DNA of 64,000 bases, from sequence record MT533174.1; one strand, 5' to 3'. Below the pieces are notes generated by a model, which was given only the letters and a program-made list of their open reading frames with translations, was not told the DNA's origin and did not search any database. A program made the position numbers and the translations under genes. This DNA comes from Escherichia phage CJ20. Positions 2,217 to 63,102 of this stretch are shown one piece after another (the stretch's first letter is position 1; each line of letters starts with the position of its first letter).

Positions 2217-2798
2217 ATGAAACCAACTACTGTTCTGCAAATCGCATACCTTGTATCTCAAGAATCAAAATGTTGCTCCTGGAAAGTGGGAGCTGTTATT
2301 GAAAAGAATGGCCGCATTATTTCTACAGGGTATAATGGTTCCCCTGCAGGTGGGGTTAACTGTTGCGAGCATGCGGAAGAGCAAGGTTGGTTACTGAATA
2401 AACCTAAACCTGTTCTCGTCCCTGGACATAAGCCAGAATGCGTGAGATTCGGTCAGGTTGACCGTTTTGTATTGGCGAAAGCTCATCGCGAAGAACATTC
2501 TGCATGGTCAAAGAACAACGAAATTCATGCCGAGCTTAATGCGATTCTGTTTGCAGCCAGAATGGGTTCATCAATTGAAGGCGCTACTATGTATGTGACG
2601 CTTTCTCCTTGCCCTGATTGTGCAAAGGCAATTTCTCAATCAGGAATCAAGAAATTGGTTTACTGTGAAACGTATGATAAGAATATTCCTGGTTGGGATG
2701 ATATCCTGAAGAATGCAGGAATTGAAGTGTTCAATGTGCCTAAGCGTAGTCTAGACAAATTGAACTGGGAAAACATTAACGAATTTTGTGGTGAATAA
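2217..2798 (+). CDS. cd: Deoxycytidylate (dCMP) deaminase
   Basis: 193 aa; near-identical along its length to recalled T4 Cd (MKxxTVLQIAYLVSQESKCCSWKVGAVIEKNGRIISTGYNGSPAGG...TLSPCPDCAKAI), zinc-binding CxxC/PCxxC motifs. Confidence 0.92.
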   Translation: MKPTTVLQIAYLVSQESKCCSWKVGAVIEKNGRIISTGYNGSPAGGVNCCEHAEEQGWLLNKPKPVLVPGHKPECVRFGQVDRFVLAKAHREEHSAWSKNNEIHAELNAILFAARMGSSIEGATMYVTLSPCPDCAKAISQSGIKKLVYCETYDKNIPGWDDILKNAGIEVFNVPKRSLDKLNWENINEFCGE

Positions 2799-3031
2799 TG
2801 AAATTTCGTCTAGTTAAATTTTCAGGGCTAAACTCAAAAGGCGAAAGCTTAGTAGCCTATTCAGTAGAATACAAAAAGTACTTTTTCTCTCGCTGGAAAT
2901 CGTACTATAAATCCGAGTGGGTTCGCGCCGAAACGAACTATAAAACGGTGCCTATTCTTGAAAATTGTCACCATCTATTGCGTGCTCTAAAAGAGCGTAA
3001 TGCAACCACTATTAAAACTGTTTTGGAATAA
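2798..3031 (+). CDS. Hypothetical protein (position of T4 31.2)
   Basis: 77-aa ORF between cd and gene 31. Confidence 0.5.
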   Translation: MKFRLVKFSGLNSKGESLVAYSVEYKKYFFSRWKSYYKSEWVRAETNYKTVPILENCHHLLRALKERNATTIKTVLE

Positions 3032-3033
3032 TT

Positions 3034-3333
3034 ATGATTTTAACTGAACAAGAAACAATTCGTCTTCGTGAAAAAGTCAAGACTATCTTGTCTGTTGGCT
3101 TTCATGAAGTTCTGTTTGAAAAAGCAGATGGCAGCGTTCGTCGTATGACTTGTACTCGCGACCTGGACCTGCTTCCATATAAAGAAATCCAGACCCCTGG
3201 ACCAGAAGCTCATAAAGAACCAGTTAGCTATATCCGGGTATTTGATACCAAGCTTAATGAATGGCGTTCATTCTGTTTCAATAAATTGATTTCCGTGAAT
3301 GGGCTACAGACCGAGACTCTGCTTGTCCTTTAA
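3034..3333 (+). CDS. Hypothetical protein (position of T4 31.1)
   Basis: 99-aa ORF between cd and gene 31. Confidence 0.5.
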   Translation: MILTEQETIRLREKVKTILSVGFHEVLFEKADGSVRRMTCTRDLDLLPYKEIQTPGPEAHKEPVSYIRVFDTKLNEWRSFCFNKLISVNGLQTETLLVL

Positions 3334-3358
3334 TGCTTCAAACGGTGCGTGTTATTAT
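3333..3358 (+). promoter_or_regulatory. Middle-promoter-like element upstream of gene 31 (TGCTTCA, 12 nt, TATTAT)
   Basis: MotA-box consensus at about -30 and -10 hexamer. Confidence 0.5.
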
Positions 3359-3388
3359 TAATACATGACCAAACAACATGGATTAAAT

Positions 3389-3712
3389 ATGGAATTACCA
3401 ATTAAAGCAGTAGGTGAATATATTATTTTGGTTTCTGAGCCAAAGCAAGCTGGTGATGAAGAAACTACGGCATCAGGTATCGTTATCGGAAAACTCCATC
3501 AGGGTGAAATCCCAGAGATGTGTGAAGTATTTTCGGTTGGTCCAGATGTTCCTGAAGGTTTCTGTGAAGTAGGTGATTTGACTCCTCTTCCGGTTGGCAA
3601 GATTGCAAACGTTCCACATCCTCTGGTTGCTCTGGGACTTAAGCAGGCTAAAGAAGTTAAGCAGAAATTTGTGACCTGCCATTATAAAGCTGTTCCTTGT
3701 CTTTATAAGTAA
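3389..3712 (+). CDS. 31: Co-chaperonin for GroEL (GroES analogue) needed for major capsid protein folding
   Basis: Strong similarity to recalled T4 gp31 (AVGEYxILVSEP...[14 protein letters not shown]). Start placed at second ATG because a MotA-box/-10 motif at 3333-3358 puts the transcript start near the first ATG (3365). Confidence 0.85.
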
Positions 3713-11743: not shown

Positions 11744-12034
11744 ATGAAATCATCTTTTCGCTTTAATGGTCAGGAACTGGTAGTTGAGAATGTTATCCCG
11801 GCTTCAGAAGAGTTTGACAGCGCGGTGGGTAATGAACTGCGGCGCGTGTTTGGCGAAGATAAGAAGTTTGACCTTCGCCCTGTTGAAAACTTTGTAAATT
11901 CTGAACAAACAGAAAATATTTTTAATGGTGTAGTAACTGGGCAACTTGAATCTGAAGCACCAATTGCAATTACAGTATTTGTTAAGAAAGAAGCTGTCAT
12001 GACTGCAACAGGTTTCATTTCATTCCGCAAATAA
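11744..12034 (+). CDS. Hypothetical protein (alt-adjacent)
   Basis: ATG 11744 with SD GAGGA; early promoter-like GTTTACA at 11684; terminator follows. Confidence 0.5.
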   Translation: MKSSFRFNGQELVVENVIPASEEFDSAVGNELRRVFGEDKKFDLRPVENFVNSEQTENIFNGVVTGQLESEAPIAITVFVKKEAVMTATGFISFRK

Positions 12035-12065
12035 AAAAGGGACCTTCGGGTCCCTTTCTTTTTAT
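12034..12065. terminator. Bidirectional terminator between convergent ORF 11744 (+) and gp54 (-)
   Basis: AAAAAAGGGACCttcgGGTCCCTTTCTTTTT; A-run and T-run flank the stem. Confidence 0.65.
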
Positions 12066-19304: not shown

Positions 19305-19340
19305 TGCTTTAATTTTATGGCTGTATAATGGTTCTAGACC
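19303..19340 (+). promoter_or_regulatory. Middle promoter (MotA box ATGCTTTA, 12 nt, TATAAT) plus conserved GGTTCTAGACC, upstream of uvsY
   Basis: Motif. Confidence 0.55.
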
Positions 19341-19357
19341 CTTACATTGGATACATT

Positions 19358-19792
19358 ATGAAAACAGAGATTGAATATAAGTTGGAAGTATTTCAGGACG
19401 AGTTAGATGCAGATTTAAAAATTGATGGTACACAACTTCAATATGAAACACAAAACAACGTTTTGTTGCATAGCAAATGGTTGAGATTGTATACTAACTG
19501 CAAGAAAGAAATAATGCGTCTTGAGATTCAGAAGAAAACTGCACTGAAAAAACGACTAGACCATTATACAGGAAGGGGTGACCCAGGGGAAGAAGTATGC
19601 ATGGATGTATACGAGAAGTCAGAATTGAAAACAGTCATGGCCGCGGATTCAAGCGTGCTGAAGATTGATACTTCAATTCAATATTGGGCACTACTCCAGG
19701 ACTTCTGTAGCGCTGCATTAGATGGTGTTAAGTCACGAAGTTTCGCACTTAAACATATGTTAGAAATAAGACAATTCGAGGCAGGTAAATGA
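19358..19792 (+). CDS. uvsY: Recombination mediator protein UvsY
   Basis: Similarity to recalled T4 UvsY (TQLQYExxNNVxLHSKWL, KIDTSxQYWxxLxDFCSxALDxxKSRxFAxKH); middle promoter motif 19303-19329; track start 19328 lies upstream of the predicted transcript start. Confidence 0.9.
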   Translation: MKTEIEYKLEVFQDELDADLKIDGTQLQYETQNNVLLHSKWLRLYTNCKKEIMRLEIQKKTALKKRLDHYTGRGDPGEEVCMDVYEKSELKTVMAADSSVLKIDTSIQYWALLQDFCSAALDGVKSRSFALKHMLEIRQFEAGK

Positions 19793-22616: not shown

Positions 22617-23465
22617 ATGGCTTATACCGTAACTATTGCTCCTTTGGCGGCTACGGCCGTTATTGGAGCAACAACCAATTTCACTGCGACCGGTTCCGGT
22701 GCTGCAGCTGAAGGTACCGAATCATTTGTCTGGACCGTTGATGGCGTTCCTCAATCTTCTGTGACTGCTGCAATGGATTATGTTGCTGTTGGTCCAGCAG
22801 GCAGTAAGACTATTAAAGTTGTTGCAACAACTACACCAGCGGACGGCGGACCAGAAACAGCTGAAGCCGAAACAACTTTAACTATCCAGAATAAAACAAT
22901 GTCTGGTGTTTCTGTGACATTAACCCCAGCTTCGATTAATGTTCCGGAAGACACCATAGCTTCATTTAAAGCAGATGTAGTTGGCGCACCGAGTGGAGCT
23001 ACTTTTGCCTATTCTTGGAAGAAAGACGGTTCTCCTGTAGTTGGCACCACGGATACTTTAGCAATCGATACAAGCGCCGAAGGTTCCCAGTTAATTGAAG
23101 TTTCTGTTGTTGTATCTGCTACAGATTATAATCCTGTTACAGTTACCAAAACCGGTAATGTAACTATCACAGCCAAAGTCGCGCCAGTTCCAGAGGGTGA
23201 ACTACCTTACGTTCATCCGCTGCCAGTTCGTAATTCAGCTTATATCTGGTGTGGTTGGTGGGTTATGGACGAAATTCAGAAAATGACTCTTGCTGGGCAA
23301 GACTGGAAAACTGATGCTCCAGATAGCCCGTATTATTTGCACCGATATACCCTTCAAAAAATGATTACCGACTATCCAGAGGTTGATGTACAGGAATCTC
23401 GTAATGGTCGAATTATTCATCGCACCGCTTTAGAAGCTGGTATTATATACGATTACGTTTATTAA
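22617..23465 (+). CDS. hoc: Hoc-like outer capsid decoration protein (Ig-like repeats)
   Basis: 282 aa; T/A/V-rich repeated beta-type segments; position as in T4; shorter than T4 Hoc. Confidence 0.7.
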   Translation: MAYTVTIAPLAATAVIGATTNFTATGSGAAAEGTESFVWTVDGVPQSSVTAAMDYVAVGPAGSKTIKVVATTTPADGGPETAEAETTLTIQNKTMSGVSVTLTPASINVPEDTIASFKADVVGAPSGATFAYSWKKDGSPVVGTTDTLAIDTSAEGSQLIEVSVVVSATDYNPVTVTKTGNVTITAKVAPVPEGELPYVHPLPVRNSAYIWCGWWVMDEIQKMTLAGQDWKTDAPDSPYYLHRYTLQKMITDYPEVDVQESRNGRIIHRTALEAGIIYDYVY

Positions 23466-23467
23466 TT

Positions 23468-23497
23468 AAAAAGGGACCTTCGGGTCCCTTTGTTTTT
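23468..23497 (+). terminator. Rho-independent terminator after hoc
   Basis: AAAAAGGGACCttcgGGTCCCTTTGTTTTT; stem identical to the 12036-12060 hairpin. Confidence 0.65.
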
Positions 23498-23534
23498 ATG
23501 GTACTGTACAAACGTTGCCTGGCATAAAAACCCT

Positions 23535-24045: not shown

Positions 24046-24050
24046 CCCTT

Positions 24051-24090
24051 TTTGCTTCAAATAAAAATGCGGTATAATGGTTCTAGACCC
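24051..24090 (+). promoter_or_regulatory. Middle promoter (TTTGCTTCA, 13 nt, TATAAT) plus GGTTCTAGACC, upstream of rnlB
   Basis: Motif. Confidence 0.55.
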
Positions 24091-25182: not shown

Positions 25183-25212
25183 AAAAAGGGCCGCAAGGCC
25201 CTTATTCTTTTT
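25183..25212. terminator. Bidirectional terminator between rnlB (+) and gp24 paralog (-)
   Basis: AAAAAAAGGGCCgcaaGGCCCTTATTCTTTTT. Confidence 0.6.
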
Positions 25213-26485
25213 CCAGTGGTGGAAGTTTAACACCAAGATAAGAACTCAATTGGCTTTGGTTAGCCATCTTATCCATATCAGCCCCATCAATAAGGCGGGC
25301 TTCTTTATCATCTTTAGCAACGGTGTAGGGGTTAGCTGTCAAAGCATAACGAGCTAACAGTGCAACCGTAGGCTGTAAGCTTTCAGGGTCAACAATAACC
25401 TTGAATTCCCCAACCGATGTATCACCCTCATCATCAACTTCGCTAAGCCCTTCCGTATAAGGCGCATAATACAAAGATGCGACCGTCTGACCCTCGCCCA
25501 TATCCGCATTTACGCCAACAATAACATAATCGCATGGACTATTCATATCTGCATAAAGAGGCAAACCGTTCTTCAGAACACCATAGGCCAATTCATCCTG
25601 GTCTTCCTTTTTCTCAACCCAGCCAGAAGCGGCTAAAATAGCTGCACAACGGGAAGAAGCAACCGCATATGTACCAGCAAACGAAGTCTGACGTTGAACT
25701 GCAGAATTCATTTCACACATATAATAATACAGGGTTCGTGCGCGGTCCTGTGCGTTATCATATTTCGGGTCAGTGAGATTCAACACACCTTTTTCAGAAA
25801 CACCTTGTACCTTGAAGCGAGAACTAACAGTAATAAGGGATTGCAATACATCCTTATTAATTTCCTCTGCCATTTGAATGCCGAGAATATTATCGATGAA
25901 GTCTGTTGCATCGAAACCGTTTGCTTCCAGGTCCTGAGCAAGCTCGACAGTTAAAGAAGTTTTCAACTTTCTGGATTTAACTTCAGTCTGCCATTTATCG
26001 ATACGGAAACCAGCTTCAGCAATTTCAGGATGCCCCTTTTCAAATTTATCAGTGAAAGCAGCATCTGACATCATTCTTATATGTCCAGCAGCAATGGCTT
26101 CAGAAATAACTTCACCTAAATCAGTTTCGAGTGTCCCGGCAAAGGGGGAAGCTTCCAGAACTTTGAATACAACGCTTTCAAACTGAAACATATCGCCGAC
26201 TGCATAAGCTTCGTCTTTGTTCGTAAATTCTGGGATATTCTTACGCTCGAACATACCAATCTGGCCCGCGAATGTCGCTCCACCAAGATATGTCATTTTA
26301 TCATCTGGGGTCAGAACACGAACACCATACAACGCTGCAACAGGCTGGGTAGTTTTCTGTTCGGCAACGAGTGCTTTAAAAATTCGTTTATTCGTGGCCT
26401 GGGTATAAGAAAGCAAATTAGGACGGGCGACCTGGTTGGCCGCCGTTAATGTTGATTCGTGAATTAGTGCGTTAATCTTTTGCAT
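25202..26485 (-). CDS. Capsid vertex protein gp24, divergent paralog
   Basis: 427 aa; roughly half the residues align with the adjacent gp24 ORF and with T4 gp24/gp23-fold motifs (QPVAALYGV, SRKLKT, TVELAQDLEANGF, EINKDVLQSLITVS, YAPYTEG, ANPYTVAKDDKEAR); ATG directly follows stop of upstream gp24 (TAAATG). Confidence 0.85.
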   Translation of the reverse strand: MQKINALIHESTLTAANQVARPNLLSYTQATNKRIFKALVAEQKTTQPVAALYGVRVLTPDDKMTYLGGATFAGQIGMFERKNIPEFTNKDEAYAVGDMFQFESVVFKVLEASPFAGTLETDLGEVISEAIAAGHIRMMSDAAFTDKFEKGHPEIAEAGFRIDKWQTEVKSRKLKTSLTVELAQDLEANGFDATDFIDNILGIQMAEEINKDVLQSLITVSSRFKVQGVSEKGVLNLTDPKYDNAQDRARTLYYYMCEMNSAVQRQTSFAGTYAVASSRCAAILAASGWVEKKEDQDELAYGVLKNGLPLYADMNSPCDYVIVGVNADMGEGQTVASLYYAPYTEGLSEVDDEGDTSVGEFKVIVDPESLQPTVALLARYALTANPYTVAKDDKEARLIDGADMDKMANQSQLSSYLGVKLPPLEKE

Positions 26486-27766
26486 TTACGCCTCATAAAT
26501 GATTGGCGGAAGTTTAACACCGAGCAGATAAGACATATTGCTCTGGCCGGCCATTAAATCCATATTAGTTGCATCGATAATACGAGCTTCTTTGTCGTCT
26601 TTAGCAACGGTGTAAGGGTTAGCTGAAAGTGCATATCGAACCATCAGGGAGATAGATGGCTGCAAACTGTCTGGGTCCACAATGACCTTAAACGCACCTA
26701 CGTGTTCTTCATCATCTAAGTCCAGGCCTTCGGTATAAGGAGCATAGAAGATTGAGCCTACGACTTCGTTTCCACCGTAATTTTCTTTAACGCCAACGGT
26801 TACATAATCCAATGGACTGTTAACATCACAGAATACAGGAAGACCATTAATCAAATAACCGTACGCTGTTTCAGGAAGCCATTGCTCGTCTTCAGGTTTA
26901 TGCTTCAGCCAGCCAGAACCAGCCAACATAGCAGCAACACGGCTAGAGGCAACAACAAAGGTACCGGAATAAGATGTAGTTTTCTGAATTTCGGAGTTCA
27001 TTTCGCAAACCAGTTCGTACAGTTTACGTGCACCTTCTGGAGCTGCATCATATGTTAAATCGATGGTGCCATTGTCAGAAACGCCAGTTACTTTATAACG
27101 CTTGGAAACGGTAATAAGAGACTGAAGAACATCTTTGTTAATTTCATCTGCCATAATAGTGGCAAGCAGGTCTTCCAAGAAAGCAGGAGCGTTAAACCCA
27201 TTTGCTTCCATATCCTGAGCAAGTTCAACAGTTAGTGCAGTTTTCAATTTACGTGTTTTAACCGGAGCATTCCATTTATTAACCTGGAATACAGCATTAC
27301 TAATCTCAACATCACCGGCTTCAAATTTCTCGGTGTGTGCCGCATCAGGAACCAAACGAATGGTTAATGCAATAAGACCTTCTTGCAGAACATCAGATAA
27401 CACTGTTTCTTTGGTCGATGCAAATGGATTATCAACCAGAGCTTTATAAACGGTATTTTGATATTTTACATATTCACCTTTAGCTACAGGCTGAGTGGCT
27501 GTAGTTAATTCTGGAATAGTTGTACGGTCTTTAGAACCGACTTCGCCACCATAAGTAGCACCAGTCTGGAAACTGAATTCATTATCAGGAGTAAGATATT
27601 TAACACCGTACAGAGCCGCAACTGGCTGGTTAGTACGTTGTTCAGCGATAATATCGCGGTAAATCAATTTGGTTGTAGCACGGGTCAAAGCAACAAGATT
27701 CGGGCGGCCCAAGGAGTTGCTGGTAGTGGTAGTTGACTCGCGCAGTAATTTGTTAATCTTTGCCAT
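26486..27766 (-). CDS. 24: Capsid vertex protein gp24 (T4-like ortholog)
   Basis: 426 aa; high similarity to recalled T4 gp24 (MAKINxLLRESTTTxSNSxGRPNLVALTRATTKLIY...); TATAAATA on - strand at 27793-27800. Confidence 0.92.
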   Translation of the reverse strand: MAKINKLLRESTTTTSNSLGRPNLVALTRATTKLIYRDIIAEQRTNQPVAALYGVKYLTPDNEFSFQTGATYGGEVGSKDRTTIPELTTATQPVAKGEYVKYQNTVYKALVDNPFASTKETVLSDVLQEGLIALTIRLVPDAAHTEKFEAGDVEISNAVFQVNKWNAPVKTRKLKTALTVELAQDMEANGFNAPAFLEDLLATIMADEINKDVLQSLITVSKRYKVTGVSDNGTIDLTYDAAPEGARKLYELVCEMNSEIQKTTSYSGTFVVASSRVAAMLAGSGWLKHKPEDEQWLPETAYGYLINGLPVFCDVNSPLDYVTVGVKENYGGNEVVGSIFYAPYTEGLDLDDEEHVGAFKVIVDPDSLQPSISLMVRYALSANPYTVAKDDKEARIIDATNMDLMAGQSNMSYLLGVKLPPIIYEA

Positions 27767-28154: not shown

Positions 28155-28160
28155 AAACAA

Positions 28161-28190
28161 GAAAGGGACCTCAAGGGTCCCTTTTTATTT
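28161..28190. terminator. Bidirectional terminator between ORF 27873 (+) and gene 23 (-)
   Basis: GAAAGGGACCtcaaGGGTCCCTTTTTATTT with A-rich 5' flank. Confidence 0.6.
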
Positions 28191-28204
28191 AACTTAATCT
28201 AAGA

Positions 28205-34146: not shown

Positions 34147-34204
34147 CTAGGTAATATGATTCATCATCTCAAGATAATGGCTTCCCAGAATCAACCACAG
34201 GAGT

Positions 34205-34255
34205 CCGTAGAACCGATTATGCTTTTATTTATAACACTGTATAATGGTTCTACGG
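34205..34255. promoter_or_regulatory. Palindromic element: MotA-box/TATAAT motif on + strand, TATAAATA on - strand (34226-34233), enclosed by 10-bp inverted repeat
   Basis: CCGTAGAACC (34205-34214) / GGTTCTACGG (34246-34255); TGCTTTTA 34220-34227 and TATAAT 34240-34245 on +. Confidence 0.4.
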
Positions 34256-34290
34256 TTTCTAACTGATTAATTCATTCTAAGCGATGATAA

Positions 34291-47804: not shown

Positions 47805-47832
47805 AAATAAAAAAGGGACCCGAAGGTCCCTA
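47804..47832 (-). terminator. Terminator after gene 8
   Basis: GGGACCcgaaGGTCCC hairpin; T-run on - strand. Confidence 0.55.
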
Positions 47833-47833
47833 G

Positions 47834-48838
47834 TTAGAATTCAAAAATAATATTTACTTCTTCGGTTTGGTCCATTGCACGATAAACAGGTGGCCTGTTT
47901 TCCATGTAAATCATTTCACCAGAATGTCGACTCAAATCAATAGCATCATAATATTCCTTTGTTGCTTTGATGTTTGGGTCATTAGGAGCAGCTTTAATTT
48001 CCAGAGGGTTAGCGACAATTGAAATCTGTCTAAAACCTTTGTTACCTGGAAGACTGAACTGAGGAAAATAAATCGAATCCATGAAAGCCTTGAAACGAAT
48101 TGTATTACCCTTGATACGATAGATTAAACCATAATCATTTTGCTGCCATGTCAGGTTATCTTTGTACCCCCAACGTTCTGGGTCTTCTGCAATTTCTTCT
48201 GGCCATGGAACAACGATATATTCGTTTGTGCAGCGGTTAATGGATACGTCAGGTGGAATCTCATAGAGATATTCCCAGAGATAGCCATCACCCATATCAA
48301 CACGTCCTTCAGTATCGCCAGTCCCTGATGGAGCCCGGCTGGAAGCATAGTCTGAAGTCCATTTACCACCAAGCTTAAGACATTCTTGCTTATTAGTGAT
48401 GGAATAAATCGAACAAGTACCAGATTCAGGAACATCCACACAACGATAAACCATCCAACCTTTACCAACATCAGTTCGGTTATATGGTGCGGTATTACTT
48501 ACGACAATTTCGCCAATCTGGAAGTTCAGCGGGTTAGGATAACGAACATCACCCCAATCCTTACGAGGAACCACGCAGTCAAGCATGGATTTATACACCT
48601 TGACTGCTCCCATCATATTAGTCCAAACATCTTCAACACCTTGAGCATCATCAACCGGATAAGGTGGAGCAAACCCCGGGTCGTTCTCGTTTGCAGCCCA
48701 TGGTTCTGCACGACCGAACGTGACATACATTGTATTTTCAGTGGCGCTATCCCCGATAGCGCCGTAAAAGTTATACATTTTTTCCGTTCTGAATTTTGAT
48801 GTAACAATCGAACGGTAAACTACGGTAGAGTTATTCAT
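47834..48838 (-). CDS. 8: Baseplate wedge subunit
   Basis: 334 aa (same as T4 gp8). Confidence 0.82.
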   Translation of the reverse strand: MNNSTVVYRSIVTSKFRTEKMYNFYGAIGDSATENTMYVTFGRAEPWAANENDPGFAPPYPVDDAQGVEDVWTNMMGAVKVYKSMLDCVVPRKDWGDVRYPNPLNFQIGEIVVSNTAPYNRTDVGKGWMVYRCVDVPESGTCSIYSITNKQECLKLGGKWTSDYASSRAPSGTGDTEGRVDMGDGYLWEYLYEIPPDVSINRCTNEYIVVPWPEEIAEDPERWGYKDNLTWQQNDYGLIYRIKGNTIRFKAFMDSIYFPQFSLPGNKGFRQISIVANPLEIKAAPNDPNIKATKEYYDAIDLSRHSGEMIYMENRPPVYRAMDQTEEVNIIFEF

Positions 48839-58414: not shown

Positions 58415-58864
58415 ATGGCATACTCCGGGAAATTTAAGCCCACCAATATAGAAAAATATAAGGGCGACTGGAAGAAAATACAATACCGGTCAAGCTGGGA
58501 GGCGTGGTTGATGAGATGGCTCGACAACCATCCGAACGTTGTTCAATGGGGCTCTGAGACTGTCATTATCCCCTACTTTAGCAATGCCGATGGTAAAAAG
58601 CGCAGATATTATATGGATTTCTGGGTTAAGTTTGATACGGGACAACAGTTCTTTTTCGAAGTTAAGCCATTAAAAGAAACAAGACCTCCAACCAAACCGG
58701 CCAATAATACCACTGCGAGTAAAAAGAGATTTATTAATGAGATGTACACCTGGAGCGTTAACTCTGACAAATGGAAAGCTGCGCAAGCTACCGCTGATAA
58801 GATGGGTATAACGTTCAGGATAATCACTGAAAACTCACTGAAAAAATTAGGATGGAAAGGATGA
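58415..58864 (+). CDS. 4: Head completion protein
   Basis: 149 aa; position divergent from gp53 as in T4; late promoter TATAAATA at 58379-58386. Confidence 0.8.
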
Positions 58865-59685
58865 GTATTTTTACATTTATCAATGAATCTGCAGATAAAC
58901 CAGGTCCGAAACCCAGTAAATCCGAACAACAATGGGTTGAAATAGGGGTTGAATTTTATACAGCAAAAGAAAAGGGAATGACCTCGAAGAAGTTTGCTGA
59001 AGAGAAAGGAATCAATTATTCGACCTTTACCAAAAGCATGTCAAGATACCATTCGAGAATTCAGACTGCTTATAAAGTATCCAAGCTCAAAAAGAAACCT
59101 GCTGGTAAACTTACGAAGGCTGAACGCCAGCTGATAATGGTGAATAGTTTTAGGAAGAGCATAAGAGATAAGATTGCTAACGAAGGTGCAGCAAGCAACA
59201 CCAAATCTGCCAGATGGTTTGCTGAGACAATTAAGAAATCAGTTCGCGGTCACGTAACGGCTAAACCTCAACCAGGTAAGATTTATGCTTATATCTATGA
59301 TGCAAAGCATAAGGATACTCTTCCGTACTGGGACAAATACCCGTTAATCATTTATCTTGGGCTAGGTAAGCATAATTTGATGTATGGTTTGAACTTGCAC
59401 TATATTCCACCGAAGGCACGCCAAGAGTTCCTTGAGGAACTTCTTAAGCAATATGCTAATACTCCTACGATTACGAACAAGACTCATCTGAAGATTGATT
59501 GGTCAAAGGTGAAGGGATTTAAAGGGGCTGACCAGATGATTAAAGCATATATACCTGGCAATATAAAAGGTACTATCACTGAAATCAAGCCCAGCGACTG
59601 GGCAAACGTTGTTATGCTTCCGTTGCAAGCTTTTTACAGCAAAGGCAAAAAATTCTCTGCACAAAAAGTTTGGAGAAATTCATAA
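58861..59685 (+). CDS. 2: DNA end protector protein
   Basis: 274 aa from ATG overlapping gp4 stop (ATGA); same length as T4 gp2. Confidence 0.8.
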
Positions 59686-59720
59686 TCTATTATCGGTCAG
59701 TGTTATTGGTAAGGACAAAA

Positions 59721-59759
59721 GGTCTAGAACCATTATAACACTGATTGGTTTAAAGCAAA
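59721..59759 (-). promoter_or_regulatory. Middle-promoter-like repeat on - strand (TTTGCTTTA, 12 nt, TATAAT, GGTTCTAGACC) pointing antisense into gene 2
   Basis: Reverse complement of + 59721-59759 matches the motif at 19303 and 24051. Confidence 0.4.
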
Positions 59760-59770
59760 CAAGGTGCACT

Positions 59771-60370
59771 ATGTCAGGTTTATATAATCAAACTAACACG
59801 ACTAACTTTATATTAGAGGTAAGCGATTCAAACCTCACACAGACTTTTAAACTCAACGTTCAAGACGTTACCCTCCCAGGGGTTCACATTCCTGTGACGG
59901 ATGTCCCCGGCGGAACGCAAGGTATAAATCGCTCCAGTCTTCCTGGTAGTACAATAGAATTCGACCCGCTGATTGTTAACTTTCTGTGTGACAAAGACCT
60001 AAGAGCATGGCTTGACATCTATAAATGGATGCTCTCGCTCAACAACTACATCACACACGAATCAAAAGCATGGCATCCAAAGGGTCGTCCTGAAGCGGTC
60101 ACGCTTCATATCTTAGATAACAACAAGGACAAAATTGTCATGTCAATCCATTACTATGGAGCATGGCCGTCCGACCTGTCAGAGATTCAGTATTCATATA
60201 AAGAAGATTCTGACCCGGCTATCAACGCAACAGCAACTTTTAACTTTAAGTCTTTTGCTGTAGAAATTGATGGTATAATAATAGAAGGTAGACCACAGAT
60301 TGATAGTAATGCAGCAATGCAACAGGAAATCAGGTCTAAGTCAATGCATCCATCTATGAGAAACGTATGA
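59771..60370 (+). CDS. 3: Tail completion / sheath stabiliser protein
   Basis: ORF between gp2 and gp1 (T4 order 4-2-3-1); start set to internal ATG 59771 because the track's upstream extension runs through a promoter-like repeat. Confidence 0.65.
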   Translation: MSGLYNQTNTTNFILEVSDSNLTQTFKLNVQDVTLPGVHIPVTDVPGGTQGINRSSLPGSTIEFDPLIVNFLCDKDLRAWLDIYKWMLSLNNYITHESKAWHPKGRPEAVTLHILDNNKDKIVMSIHYYGAWPSDLSEIQYSYKEDSDPAINATATFNFKSFAVEIDGIIIEGRPQIDSNAAMQQEIRSKSMHPSMRNV

Positions 60371-62411: not shown

Positions 62412-62711
62412 ATGCAAACTTTTCATGAATTTTTGGTAGAAAACAATTACCTGGCGGAAGCAAAAACCTGGCCTCTGGGTCTTCAGAAGAAAAACACCTA
62501 TAAATGGGTTGACTTCAAAGGTAAAGGCGACGCTGAAGACTTTGACCAGCTGCGTAAAAATGGTTATACCTTCCTTGACTCTAACTATAACAAAATTACC
62601 TCTTTTAGTCAGAAGTCAAGCATTGCCTTCATTGAAACTGGTAAGAACTCTCCTAAAGATATTTCTGACGACTTCGCCGCTTATGGTGTAATTCGTGGTT
62701 CAAAAATGTAA
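62412..62711 (+). CDS. Internal-protein-like (IP) protein with capsid-targeting sequence
   Basis: N-terminus MQTFHEFLVE. Confidence 0.6.
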   Translation: MQTFHEFLVENNYLAEAKTWPLGLQKKNTYKWVDFKGKGDAEDFDQLRKNGYTFLDSNYNKITSFSQKSSIAFIETGKNSPKDISDDFAAYGVIRGSKM

Positions 62712-62749
62712 TGTACATGATGGGATAGTTGCAGTATAATTATCCCATC
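62711..62749 (+). promoter_or_regulatory. Promoter/stem-loop cassette (ATGTAC, 18 nt, TATAAT in hairpin loop)
   Basis: Inverted repeat GATGGGATA (62719-62727) / TATCCCATC (62741-62749). Confidence 0.45.
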
Positions 62750-62766
62750 AACTACTGGAGCTACTA

Positions 62767-63045
62767 ATGAAAACTTATCAAGAATTTATTAACGAATCAA
62801 TTAGTCACCCGGATATGCTGGAAGACCTGAAAGGACATCTGATGGTTAAGGCCAAACCGGTTGATGGTGGCGCATTTGAGTTGTTTCTTGTTAAAGGCGA
62901 AAACGGTCCTGATAACAAGAAAGTTTCAGCAATGATGTTGACTAAAGGTTACAAAGTCAGTTCTTCCTGGAATGCTCCATTCACTTACGCGGTAAGCCCT
63001 CGTGAACTGAAAAAAGTTAAAGCTGGACAATATACAAAAATTTAG
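62767..63045 (+). CDS. Internal-protein-like (IP) protein with capsid-targeting sequence
   Basis: N-terminus MKTYQEFINE, nearly identical to the T4 IP targeting sequence. Confidence 0.65.
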   Translation: MKTYQEFINESISHPDMLEDLKGHLMVKAKPVDGGAFELFLVKGENGPDNKKVSAMMLTKGYKVSSSWNAPFTYAVSPRELKKVKAGQYTKI

Positions 63046-63083
63046 TGTACGTGATGGGATAGTTGTAGTATGATTATCTCATC
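63045..63083 (+). promoter_or_regulatory. Promoter/stem-loop cassette (GTGTAC, 18 nt, TATGAT in hairpin loop)
   Basis: Inverted repeat GATGGGATA (63053-63061) / TATCTCATC (63075-63083), one mismatch. Confidence 0.45.
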
Positions 63084-63102
63084 AACTACTGAGGAGAATA
63101 AA

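Follow-up and report, generated by a model that had tools for sequence, protein, structure and literature searches.

A conserved middle-promoter-like element faces backward between genes 2 and 3 of Escherichia phage CJ20 and related T4-type phages

Middle transcription of phage T4 is the textbook case of sigma appropriation, and the list of its promoters is considered nearly complete. The middle-promoter consensus consists of a MotA box, (a/t)(a/t)(a/t)TGCTTtA, located 12+/-1 bp from TAtaaT (Hinton, 2010; PMC2988021), and a TGn extension is present in about half of the MotA/AsiA-dependent middle promoters. The T4 origins oriF (PuvsY) and oriG (P34i) are built on MotA promoters with a box after the -10 hexamer that is related to the one described below, and oriG likewise fires antisense to a late gene. 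Reviews name only oriA, C, E, F and G as T4 origins, and a review of T4 replication places no middle-mode promoter near oriE. Promoters can also be dispersed as repeats: PeSLs are reportedly short promoter-plus-hairpin modules that are scattered over intergenic regions and evolve as repeats, and they are said to be early sigma-70 promoters of hyperplastic regions that face their own genes. The element described here similarly combines a promoter with a hairpin, but it is of the MotA type and backward-facing, and it is situated in the conserved structural core. In RB69, its positional ortholog is known only as an HMM match, predicted as Pm:79256 (+) with a score of 16.3 (Nolan et al., 2006; PMC1524935, Additional file 4); beyond this entry in the supplementary table, no discussion of Pm:79256 was found in the available parts of that paper.

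The window, i.e., the whole stretch of DNA that was analysed, comprises 64,000 nt of one strand of Escherichia phage CJ20 (MT533174.1). It belongs to a Gaprivervirus, a T4-type coliphage similar to VR7, VR20 and SP18, and is 97.7% identical to VR20. The 2.9 kb surrounding the element share 96-98% identity with Gaprivervirus vB_EcoM_VR20, SP18 and VR7. The + strand of the window corresponds to the counter-clockwise (early/middle) direction on the T4 map, and the annotation of the relatives defines the following setting:

58415 to 58864, + strand: gene 4
58852 to 59685, + strand: gene 2
59686 to 59694, + strand: TCTATTATC, conserved, immediately 3' of the gene 2 stop codon
59771 to 60370, + strand: gene 3
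+ strand: genes 1 and 57A
Left of gene 4, - strand: genes 53 and 5

Genes 2 and 3 are separated by a spacer of 85 nt (59686-59770), which contains the backward-facing element. On the - strand, positions 59762 to 59720 read TTGTTTGCTTTAAACCAATCAGTGTTATAATGGTTCTAGACCT, in which these parts can be distinguished:

59751 to 59760, - strand: MotA box GTTTGCTTTA, consensus (a/t)(a/t)(a/t)TGCTTtA, centred at about -30
59741 to 59750, - strand: AAACCAATCA, the non-conserved part of the 13-nt spacer, free in sequence between lineages and kept in length
59732 to 59740, - strand: extended -10, TGT plus TATAAT (TGn at 59740-59738, hexamer at 59737-59732)
59721 to 59731, - strand: box after the -10 hexamer, GGTTCTAGACC, with the predicted start, an A, at 59725

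By its sequence, the element is thus of the middle-promoter kind: it has a MotA box, TATAAT at 13-nt spacing and a TGT extension. The A at 59725 is the predicted start because of the analogy to mapped T4 promoters, in which the equivalent A begins the transcript of PnrdC.7 (TATAATGGTTCTA followed by AGCCC) and of PuvsY (TATAATGAATCTA followed by AGTCC). Across TATAATGGTTCTA, the context of the element is identical to that of the mapped PnrdC.7 from -12 to +1, and it is close to PuvsY and P34i. The box after the hexamer therefore marks a sub-family of active middle promoters and is not origin-specific, because it is common to PuvsY (oriF), P34i (oriG) and PnrdC.7, which serves an ordinary gene. 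T4 middle promoters such as PnrdC.7, PuvsY and P1 resemble the element in the TGCTTtA box, the spacer (12+/-1 to 13 nt), the TGn-TATAAT and a start (predicted here) 7 nt after the hexamer. Unlike them, the element points clockwise, in the “late” direction, with no gene downstream, and is antisense to late genes.

How far such a sequence exceeds chance can be judged from pattern counts and from a matrix score. The pattern TGCTTTA-N10-15-TATAAT occurs twice in the window, where 0.07 occurrences are expected, and the 17-mer TATAATGGTTCTAGACC has three exact copies, compared to 0.12 expected even if 3 mismatches are allowed. For scoring, the T4 genome was assembled, and 47 of the 58 mapped T4 middle promoters served to train a position matrix, which took into account only the MotA box, the length of the spacer and positions -15 to -7, with nothing downstream of -7. 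With this T4-trained matrix, the element reaches 20.7 bits (9.8 from the MotA box, 10.9 from the -10) and is the sole - strand match of at least 18 bits in the window; its score lies above the median of the mapped T4 promoters (17.0, training-set maximum 23.0). Among 40 random Markov windows of 64 kb, the maxima had a mean of 16.2 and were never above 19.7. Since pattern counts, 17-mer counts and matrix score all exceed expectation, the element is real and not a product of chance.

The element belongs to a family, whose other copies in the window are:

684 to 725, + strand: sibling TAACGCTTTA-N12-TATAATGGGGTCTAGGTCC, 22.2 bits
19300 to 19341, + strand: the uvsY promoter, directly upstream of uvsY, ortholog of T4 PuvsY/oriF
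24048 to 24090, + strand: sibling upstream of rnlB
34215 to 34257, + strand: sibling between gene 19 and gene 18, antisense into gene 18

The preliminary description had presented the sequence as one copy of a repeat on the - strand between genes 2 and 3, pointing leftward. Position, strand and orientation are confirmed by the anatomy of the - strand, the gene names agree with the Gaprivervirus annotation, and the repeat indeed has five copies in the window, the uvsY and rnlB promoters included. The copies share the -10 hexamer and a GGTTCTAG-type box; the form GGTTCTAGACC is common to the element and the window's uvsY and rnlB promoters, and at 684-725, upstream of an ORF at 1097-1639, the box is one base longer (TATAATGGGGTCTAGGTCC). 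In IMG/VR, exact copies of the 17-mer number only three per Gaprivervirus genome. The sibling at 34215-34257 has the topology of the element, lying just upstream of the start of the downstream gene. Its MotA box and -10 hexamer are enclosed by a perfect 10-bp inverted repeat, CCGTAGAACC...GGTTCTACGG (34195-34260), and its T4 counterpart is only a weaker candidate inside gene 18, at ~100,413 (-).

An annotation problem is connected with this family. The uvsY ORF at 19328-19792 (+) is overextended by 10 codons through an in-frame ATG inside the TATAATGG of its own promoter (MVLDPYIGYI-MKTEIE...), and this extension is an annotation artefact. A small ORF beginning at the ATG in the TATAATGG of the element (MVLDLL...) was considered and rejected as well: it lacks a ribosome-binding site, transcription is predicted to start downstream of its ATG, and the similarity of the “peptide” mirrors that of the nucleotide box, which is found at PuvsY too. 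Artefacts of the ATG in TATAATGG and backward promoters in spacers between structural genes therefore deserve a warning to annotators.

The ortholog in T4, AATGCTTTATAACTGTTGGTGGTATAATGGGTCTAAGTCCC, is located in the gene 3-gene 2 spacer (record + strand, 75,968-76,003) and faces backward likewise. With 23.6 bits, it scores above all 47 promoters of the training set. It is absent from the 58 experimentally mapped T4 middle promoters, despite the systematic searches of others (Hinton, 2010; PMC2988021). In the literature, no T4 transcription-start map naming this site was found, nor an experimental mapping of the element in any phage. Some good consensus matches reportedly yield no transcript in vivo or in vitro. 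Only two sites stand out with the matrix on the + strand of the T4 record, both of them unmapped. The other one, which at 24.0 bits is the top-scoring middle-promoter match of the whole T4 genome, is a + strand site between srd and modA, outside the window (AAATGCTTTAAAACTTTCATGGTATAATGAATCTAAGTCCTTCCATT, ~11,860-11,900 in AF158101/NC_000866), which is not in the list of 58 either. This site is a near-twin of the T4 copy between genes 2 and 3 (40 of 48 nt identical) and has the same topology, being placed upstream of the downstream gene's start and firing back into the preceding gene; it is antisense to the early genes modA/modB, whereas the element is antisense to late genes. In RB69, the ortholog reads AACGCTTTAATAAAAATGCAGTATAATGGTTTTAGGTC on the + strand, within the gene 3-gene 2 spacer at 79,251-79,352.

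Conservation extends well beyond these phages. With gp3 as anchor, 47 IMG/VR loci were collected, and the element was found in about 20 distinct lineages in addition to T4 and RB69, in the same spacer and the same backward orientation. Nearly all lineages having a gene 2-gene 3 spacer carry it, at gp3 identities down to 47%. Among 23 distinct orthologous copies, the information content peaks at about 2 bits at GCT(T) and TATAAT(G) and amounts to 0.1-0.3 bits per position in the spacer; the GCTT-type core and the -10 hexamer are 14-16 nt apart, equivalent to a spacer of 12-14 nt after TGCTTTA. GCT is invariant in these 23 copies, which is partly forced by the pattern used for selecting them, and 19 whole gene 2-gene 3 spacers from different lineages were therefore aligned blindly (MAFFT). 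In this unbiased alignment, only TA(T)AAT(G) is invariant or near-invariant within the element, and the GCT of the MotA box is aligned in most rows. Because two conserved blocks are joined by a spacer of free sequence and fixed length, the conservation pattern is the footprint of a promoter and not that of a hairpin or a coding remnant.

The element is nevertheless dispensable, since three MotA-encoding lineages do without it: in L044, L046 and L049, genes 2 and 3 abut and the element is absent, yet motA and MotA-type uvsY promoters are present. Two lineages whose spacer contains other cassettes lack it too. The scan for motA was limited by its pattern, and absences of motA are uninformative for a co-occurrence with the element. 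As motA and asiA lie outside the 64-kb window, their presence is given at the level of the genus, in which VR7 has annotated motA (VR7_gp276) and asiA (VR7_gp268), and the VR20, VR25 and VR26 contigs carry motA homologs with 33-34% identity to T4.

The spacer is, moreover, a target of insertion. VR7, VR25 and members of two or more other lineages carry a gene for a MobB-like HNH homing endonuclease, whose insertion point coincides exactly with the stop codon of gene 2 (59685/59686 in the window; 2786-3442 of the VR7 locus L001, and likewise in L009, L014 and L041). This gene always lies upstream, in the sense direction, of TCTATTATC and the promoter element, which is intact there. The idea that the backward promoter drives the homing endonuclease was therefore rejected: relative to the sense strand, the insertion in VR7, VR25 and the others precedes the element.

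By default, featureCounts ignores the strand of a read, which is of interest for published T4 data. In an RNA-seq study of T4 with directional libraries from 1, 4, 7 and 20 min, reads were counted by featureCounts with default settings, and a gene was classified by the time at which it exceeds 10% of its maximal TPM (Wolfram-Schauerte et al., 2022; PMC9697503, Table S2). There, gene 2 is of Class_Tx “middle” and genes 3, 4, 53 and 5 are “late”: gene 2 alone is above 10% of its maximum by 7 min, while the other four are late-only (PMC9697503). Two genes taken as controls show the same behaviour: gene 34, which contains the antisense oriG promoter, is “middle” as well (PMC9697503), and so is gene 11, which has an antisense match of 16.4 bits at the gene end (- strand, ~90,525). 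Gene 11 is among the few structural genes with this class in the T4 RNA-seq. Upstream of T4 gene 2, the T4-trained matrix finds no sense-strand match of 10 bits or more. The T4 classes are thus suggestive of a middle-time RNA confined largely to gene 2, a hint that depends on a threshold classification and on reading the featureCounts defaults as unstranded. Concerning the preliminary description, the assignment to a middle-promoter-like class is borne out by the consensus match and by conservation across genera at the same spot with the same facing; the orthologs in T4 and RB69 and the overlap with a strong hairpin of the sense mRNA had escaped it. Of the two roles it had proposed, a regulatory antisense RNA fits the “middle” class of T4 gene 2, and an earlier expression of genes 53 and 5 does not agree with their late-only classes.

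The reading that we favour, and consider fairly probable, is that of an active MotA/AsiA-dependent promoter giving rise to a non-coding antisense RNA that is limited for the most part to gene 2. At middle times, host RNA polymerase with AsiA-remodelled sigma-70 would bind TGT-TATAAT and MotA would bind GTTTGCTTTA at -30, i.e., sigma appropriation, and transcription would fire leftward from ~59725. The resulting RNA would be non-coding and complementary both to the spacer and to the 3' portion of gene 2. Weak intrinsic termination, Rho-type termination or decay would probably stop most of it inside gene 2 or gene 4, before genes 53 and 5 are reached. Such an RNA could act in cis, by pairing or by collision with sense transcription of the late 4-2-3 operon, and the expression of gene 2 and downstream genes might thereby be held down or delayed until the late promoters take over. 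Transcription in this phage as well as the extent and the role of the RNA are what we infer from the features of the site. Against this reading stands the fact that no gene is served, the first co-oriented gene being ~1.3 kb away. Two predicted hairpins bear on the question:

59589 to 59603, - strand: weak hairpin GCCCAGTCGCTGGGC of terminator-like form with TTGATTTCA after it, at +123 from the predicted start
59692 to 59749, + strand: sense RNA hairpin, MFE -26.1 kcal/mol, z = -3.9, with 0 of 200 shuffles as stable

Termination at 59589-59603 would yield an RNA of ~135-145 nt, which is doubtful: the hairpin lies in codons of gene 2 (K-P-S-D-W-A), is patchy and occurs in only some lineages. 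A structured small RNA or a conserved terminator within gene 2 was discarded as a candidate, as synonymous identity over the last ~40 codons is 0.42-0.53, compared to a mean of 0.49 +/- 0.06 for the gene. As synonymous conservation toward the 3' end of gene 2 does not exceed that elsewhere, the antisense RNA has no constrained sequence of its own.

The sense hairpin gives rise to another explanation, which we regard as unlikely: the selected feature might be a hairpin of the late 4-2-3 mRNA, serving stabilisation, processing or translational insulation, and the promoter look might be incidental or the promoter inactive. The hairpin is strong, and by comparison the predicted antisense RNA shows no unusual degree of structure (z -1.1). 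The 3' arm of the hairpin spans the -10 hexamer and the spacer of the antisense promoter, including the AAACCAATCA region, and sense-spacer hairpins are found in most lineages. The antisense transcript of this phage and of the L010 group would start downstream of one of the two arms, and the hairpin can therefore form in the sense RNA only. However, a hairpin does not explain why TATAAT(G) and GCT(T) stay constant and correctly spaced from lineage to lineage when its arms vary in sequence and position. In addition, RNAalifold gives no consensus structure for the spacer, a structure drawn by hand for the alignable subgroup (the closest group) contains one covarying pair, which is not significant (70/500 shuffles), and Rfam has no match at E <=1 in 59400-59900 on either strand. 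Nor does the hairpin look like an intrinsic terminator of the sense operon: its tail is UUGGUUUAAAG, its loop is long, the terminator scan makes no call, and in most lineages no U-tract follows it. The hairpin and promoter readings are not mutually exclusive. A further explanation is a replication role, in which the promoter would be active and its transcript, as at T4 oriF and oriG, would form a persistent R-loop; leading-strand synthesis primed by it would run clockwise in the direction of oriE and the divergence of genes 4 and 53. We hold this to be improbable, although several observations speak in its favor: the box after the -10 hexamer is common to T4 oriF, oriG and the window's uvsY promoter, the element fires antisense into a late gene, as does oriG, and it is ~1.3 kb from the strand-switch where oriE-class origins sit. 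Moreover, the uvsY copy and the copy between genes 2 and 3 are more alike within several genomes (13/18 nt) than between genomes (~8.5/18), which suggests gene conversion or shared constraint. These points are countered by the occurrence of the same box in the mapped PnrdC.7, by T4 oriE being annotated at 79,355 in the opposite direction with an early-type promoter, and by the direction of the element, which is opposite to all annotated T4 origins. As to base composition, the A+T content downstream of the T4 ortholog is not distinctive (0.66 vs a genome mean of 0.647); in the window, positions +1 to +50 have 0.68 (window mean 0.588, 90th percentile 0.68), and T4 oriG has only 0.60. Moreover, oriF and oriG are reported to be the only T4 origins that plasmid screens have yielded, which counts against a replication role.

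Two further explanations would deny the element its function or extend its reach. It might be a silent relic or passenger, i.e., a PuvsY-like cassette that recombined into the spacer and is harmless there, perhaps titrating MotA or RNA polymerase or serving as a homology patch for recombination. The promoter is indeed a member of a dispersed repeat family, and T4 has the near-twin between srd and modA; the spacer is a hot spot for insertion of homing endonucleases, the T4 copy is unmapped, and some lineages lack the element. A neutral relic, however, would not retain both blocks and their spacing across gp3 identities of 47-55%, where the surrounding spacer is unalignable, and this makes the explanation quite improbable. 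It is very unlikely that genes 53 and 5 are expressed from the promoter at middle times (pre-late) through antisense read-through of genes 2 and 4. The orientation is right, and between 59725 and gene 53 the - strand showed no strong intrinsic terminator. Yet genes 4, 53 and 5 of T4 are late-only in transcript and protein classes, gene 2 alone being “middle,” read-through would require ~1.3 kb of untranslated RNA, an expected target of Rho termination, and genes 53 and 5 possess a late promoter region of their own.

The kind of promoter is known; the main new result is the conservation of the backward element elsewhere, and it is the orientation together with the depth of conservation that is unusual. 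If real, this deeply conserved and top-scoring MotA promoter, backward within the late structural core, would extend the model of middle transcription by a regulated antisense RNA or possibly an R-loop primer, and it would explain the “middle” class of gene 2 in T4 RNA-seq counted with featureCounts defaults. We tentatively consider it possible that there is a small, conserved class of reverse MotA cassettes, each located just upstream of a gene's start and firing into the preceding gene. Its members may be the element between genes 2 and 3 (here, in T4 and in RB69), the sibling antisense to gene 18 at 34215 and the T4 srd/modA twin. Such cassettes would then represent an unrecognised layer of middle-mode control, which could silence neighbouring early or late mRNAs, either through pairing of the antisense RNA or through head-on interference, or could alternatively supply clockwise R-loop primers beside the oriE strand-switch. 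The two best consensus matches of T4 would, in that case, be real and functionally distinct promoters that were missed because they face the “wrong” way.

Other repeated features were noticed in the window. Two regions on the - strand, 25202-26485 and 26486-27766, are tandem paralogs of the capsid vertex gene 24, designated 24(1) and 24(2) in the VR7 annotation, with a 198-nt stretch of 72% identity. A family of GGGACC-loop-GGTCCC hairpins occurs at 12030-12065, 23464-23499, 28156-28191 and 47806-47841; these hairpins are flanked by A-runs and T-runs, are located at boundaries of gene blocks and resemble bidirectional intrinsic terminators. Finally, a direct repeat of 57 nt (89% identical; 62701-62757 and 63035-63091, +) contains GTACATGATGGGATAGTTGCAGTATAATTATCCCATCAAC, a promoter-like -10 hexamer within a GGGATA/TATCCC hairpin upstream of small ORFs, and resembles the promoter-stem-loop cassettes of T4-type hyperplastic regions.
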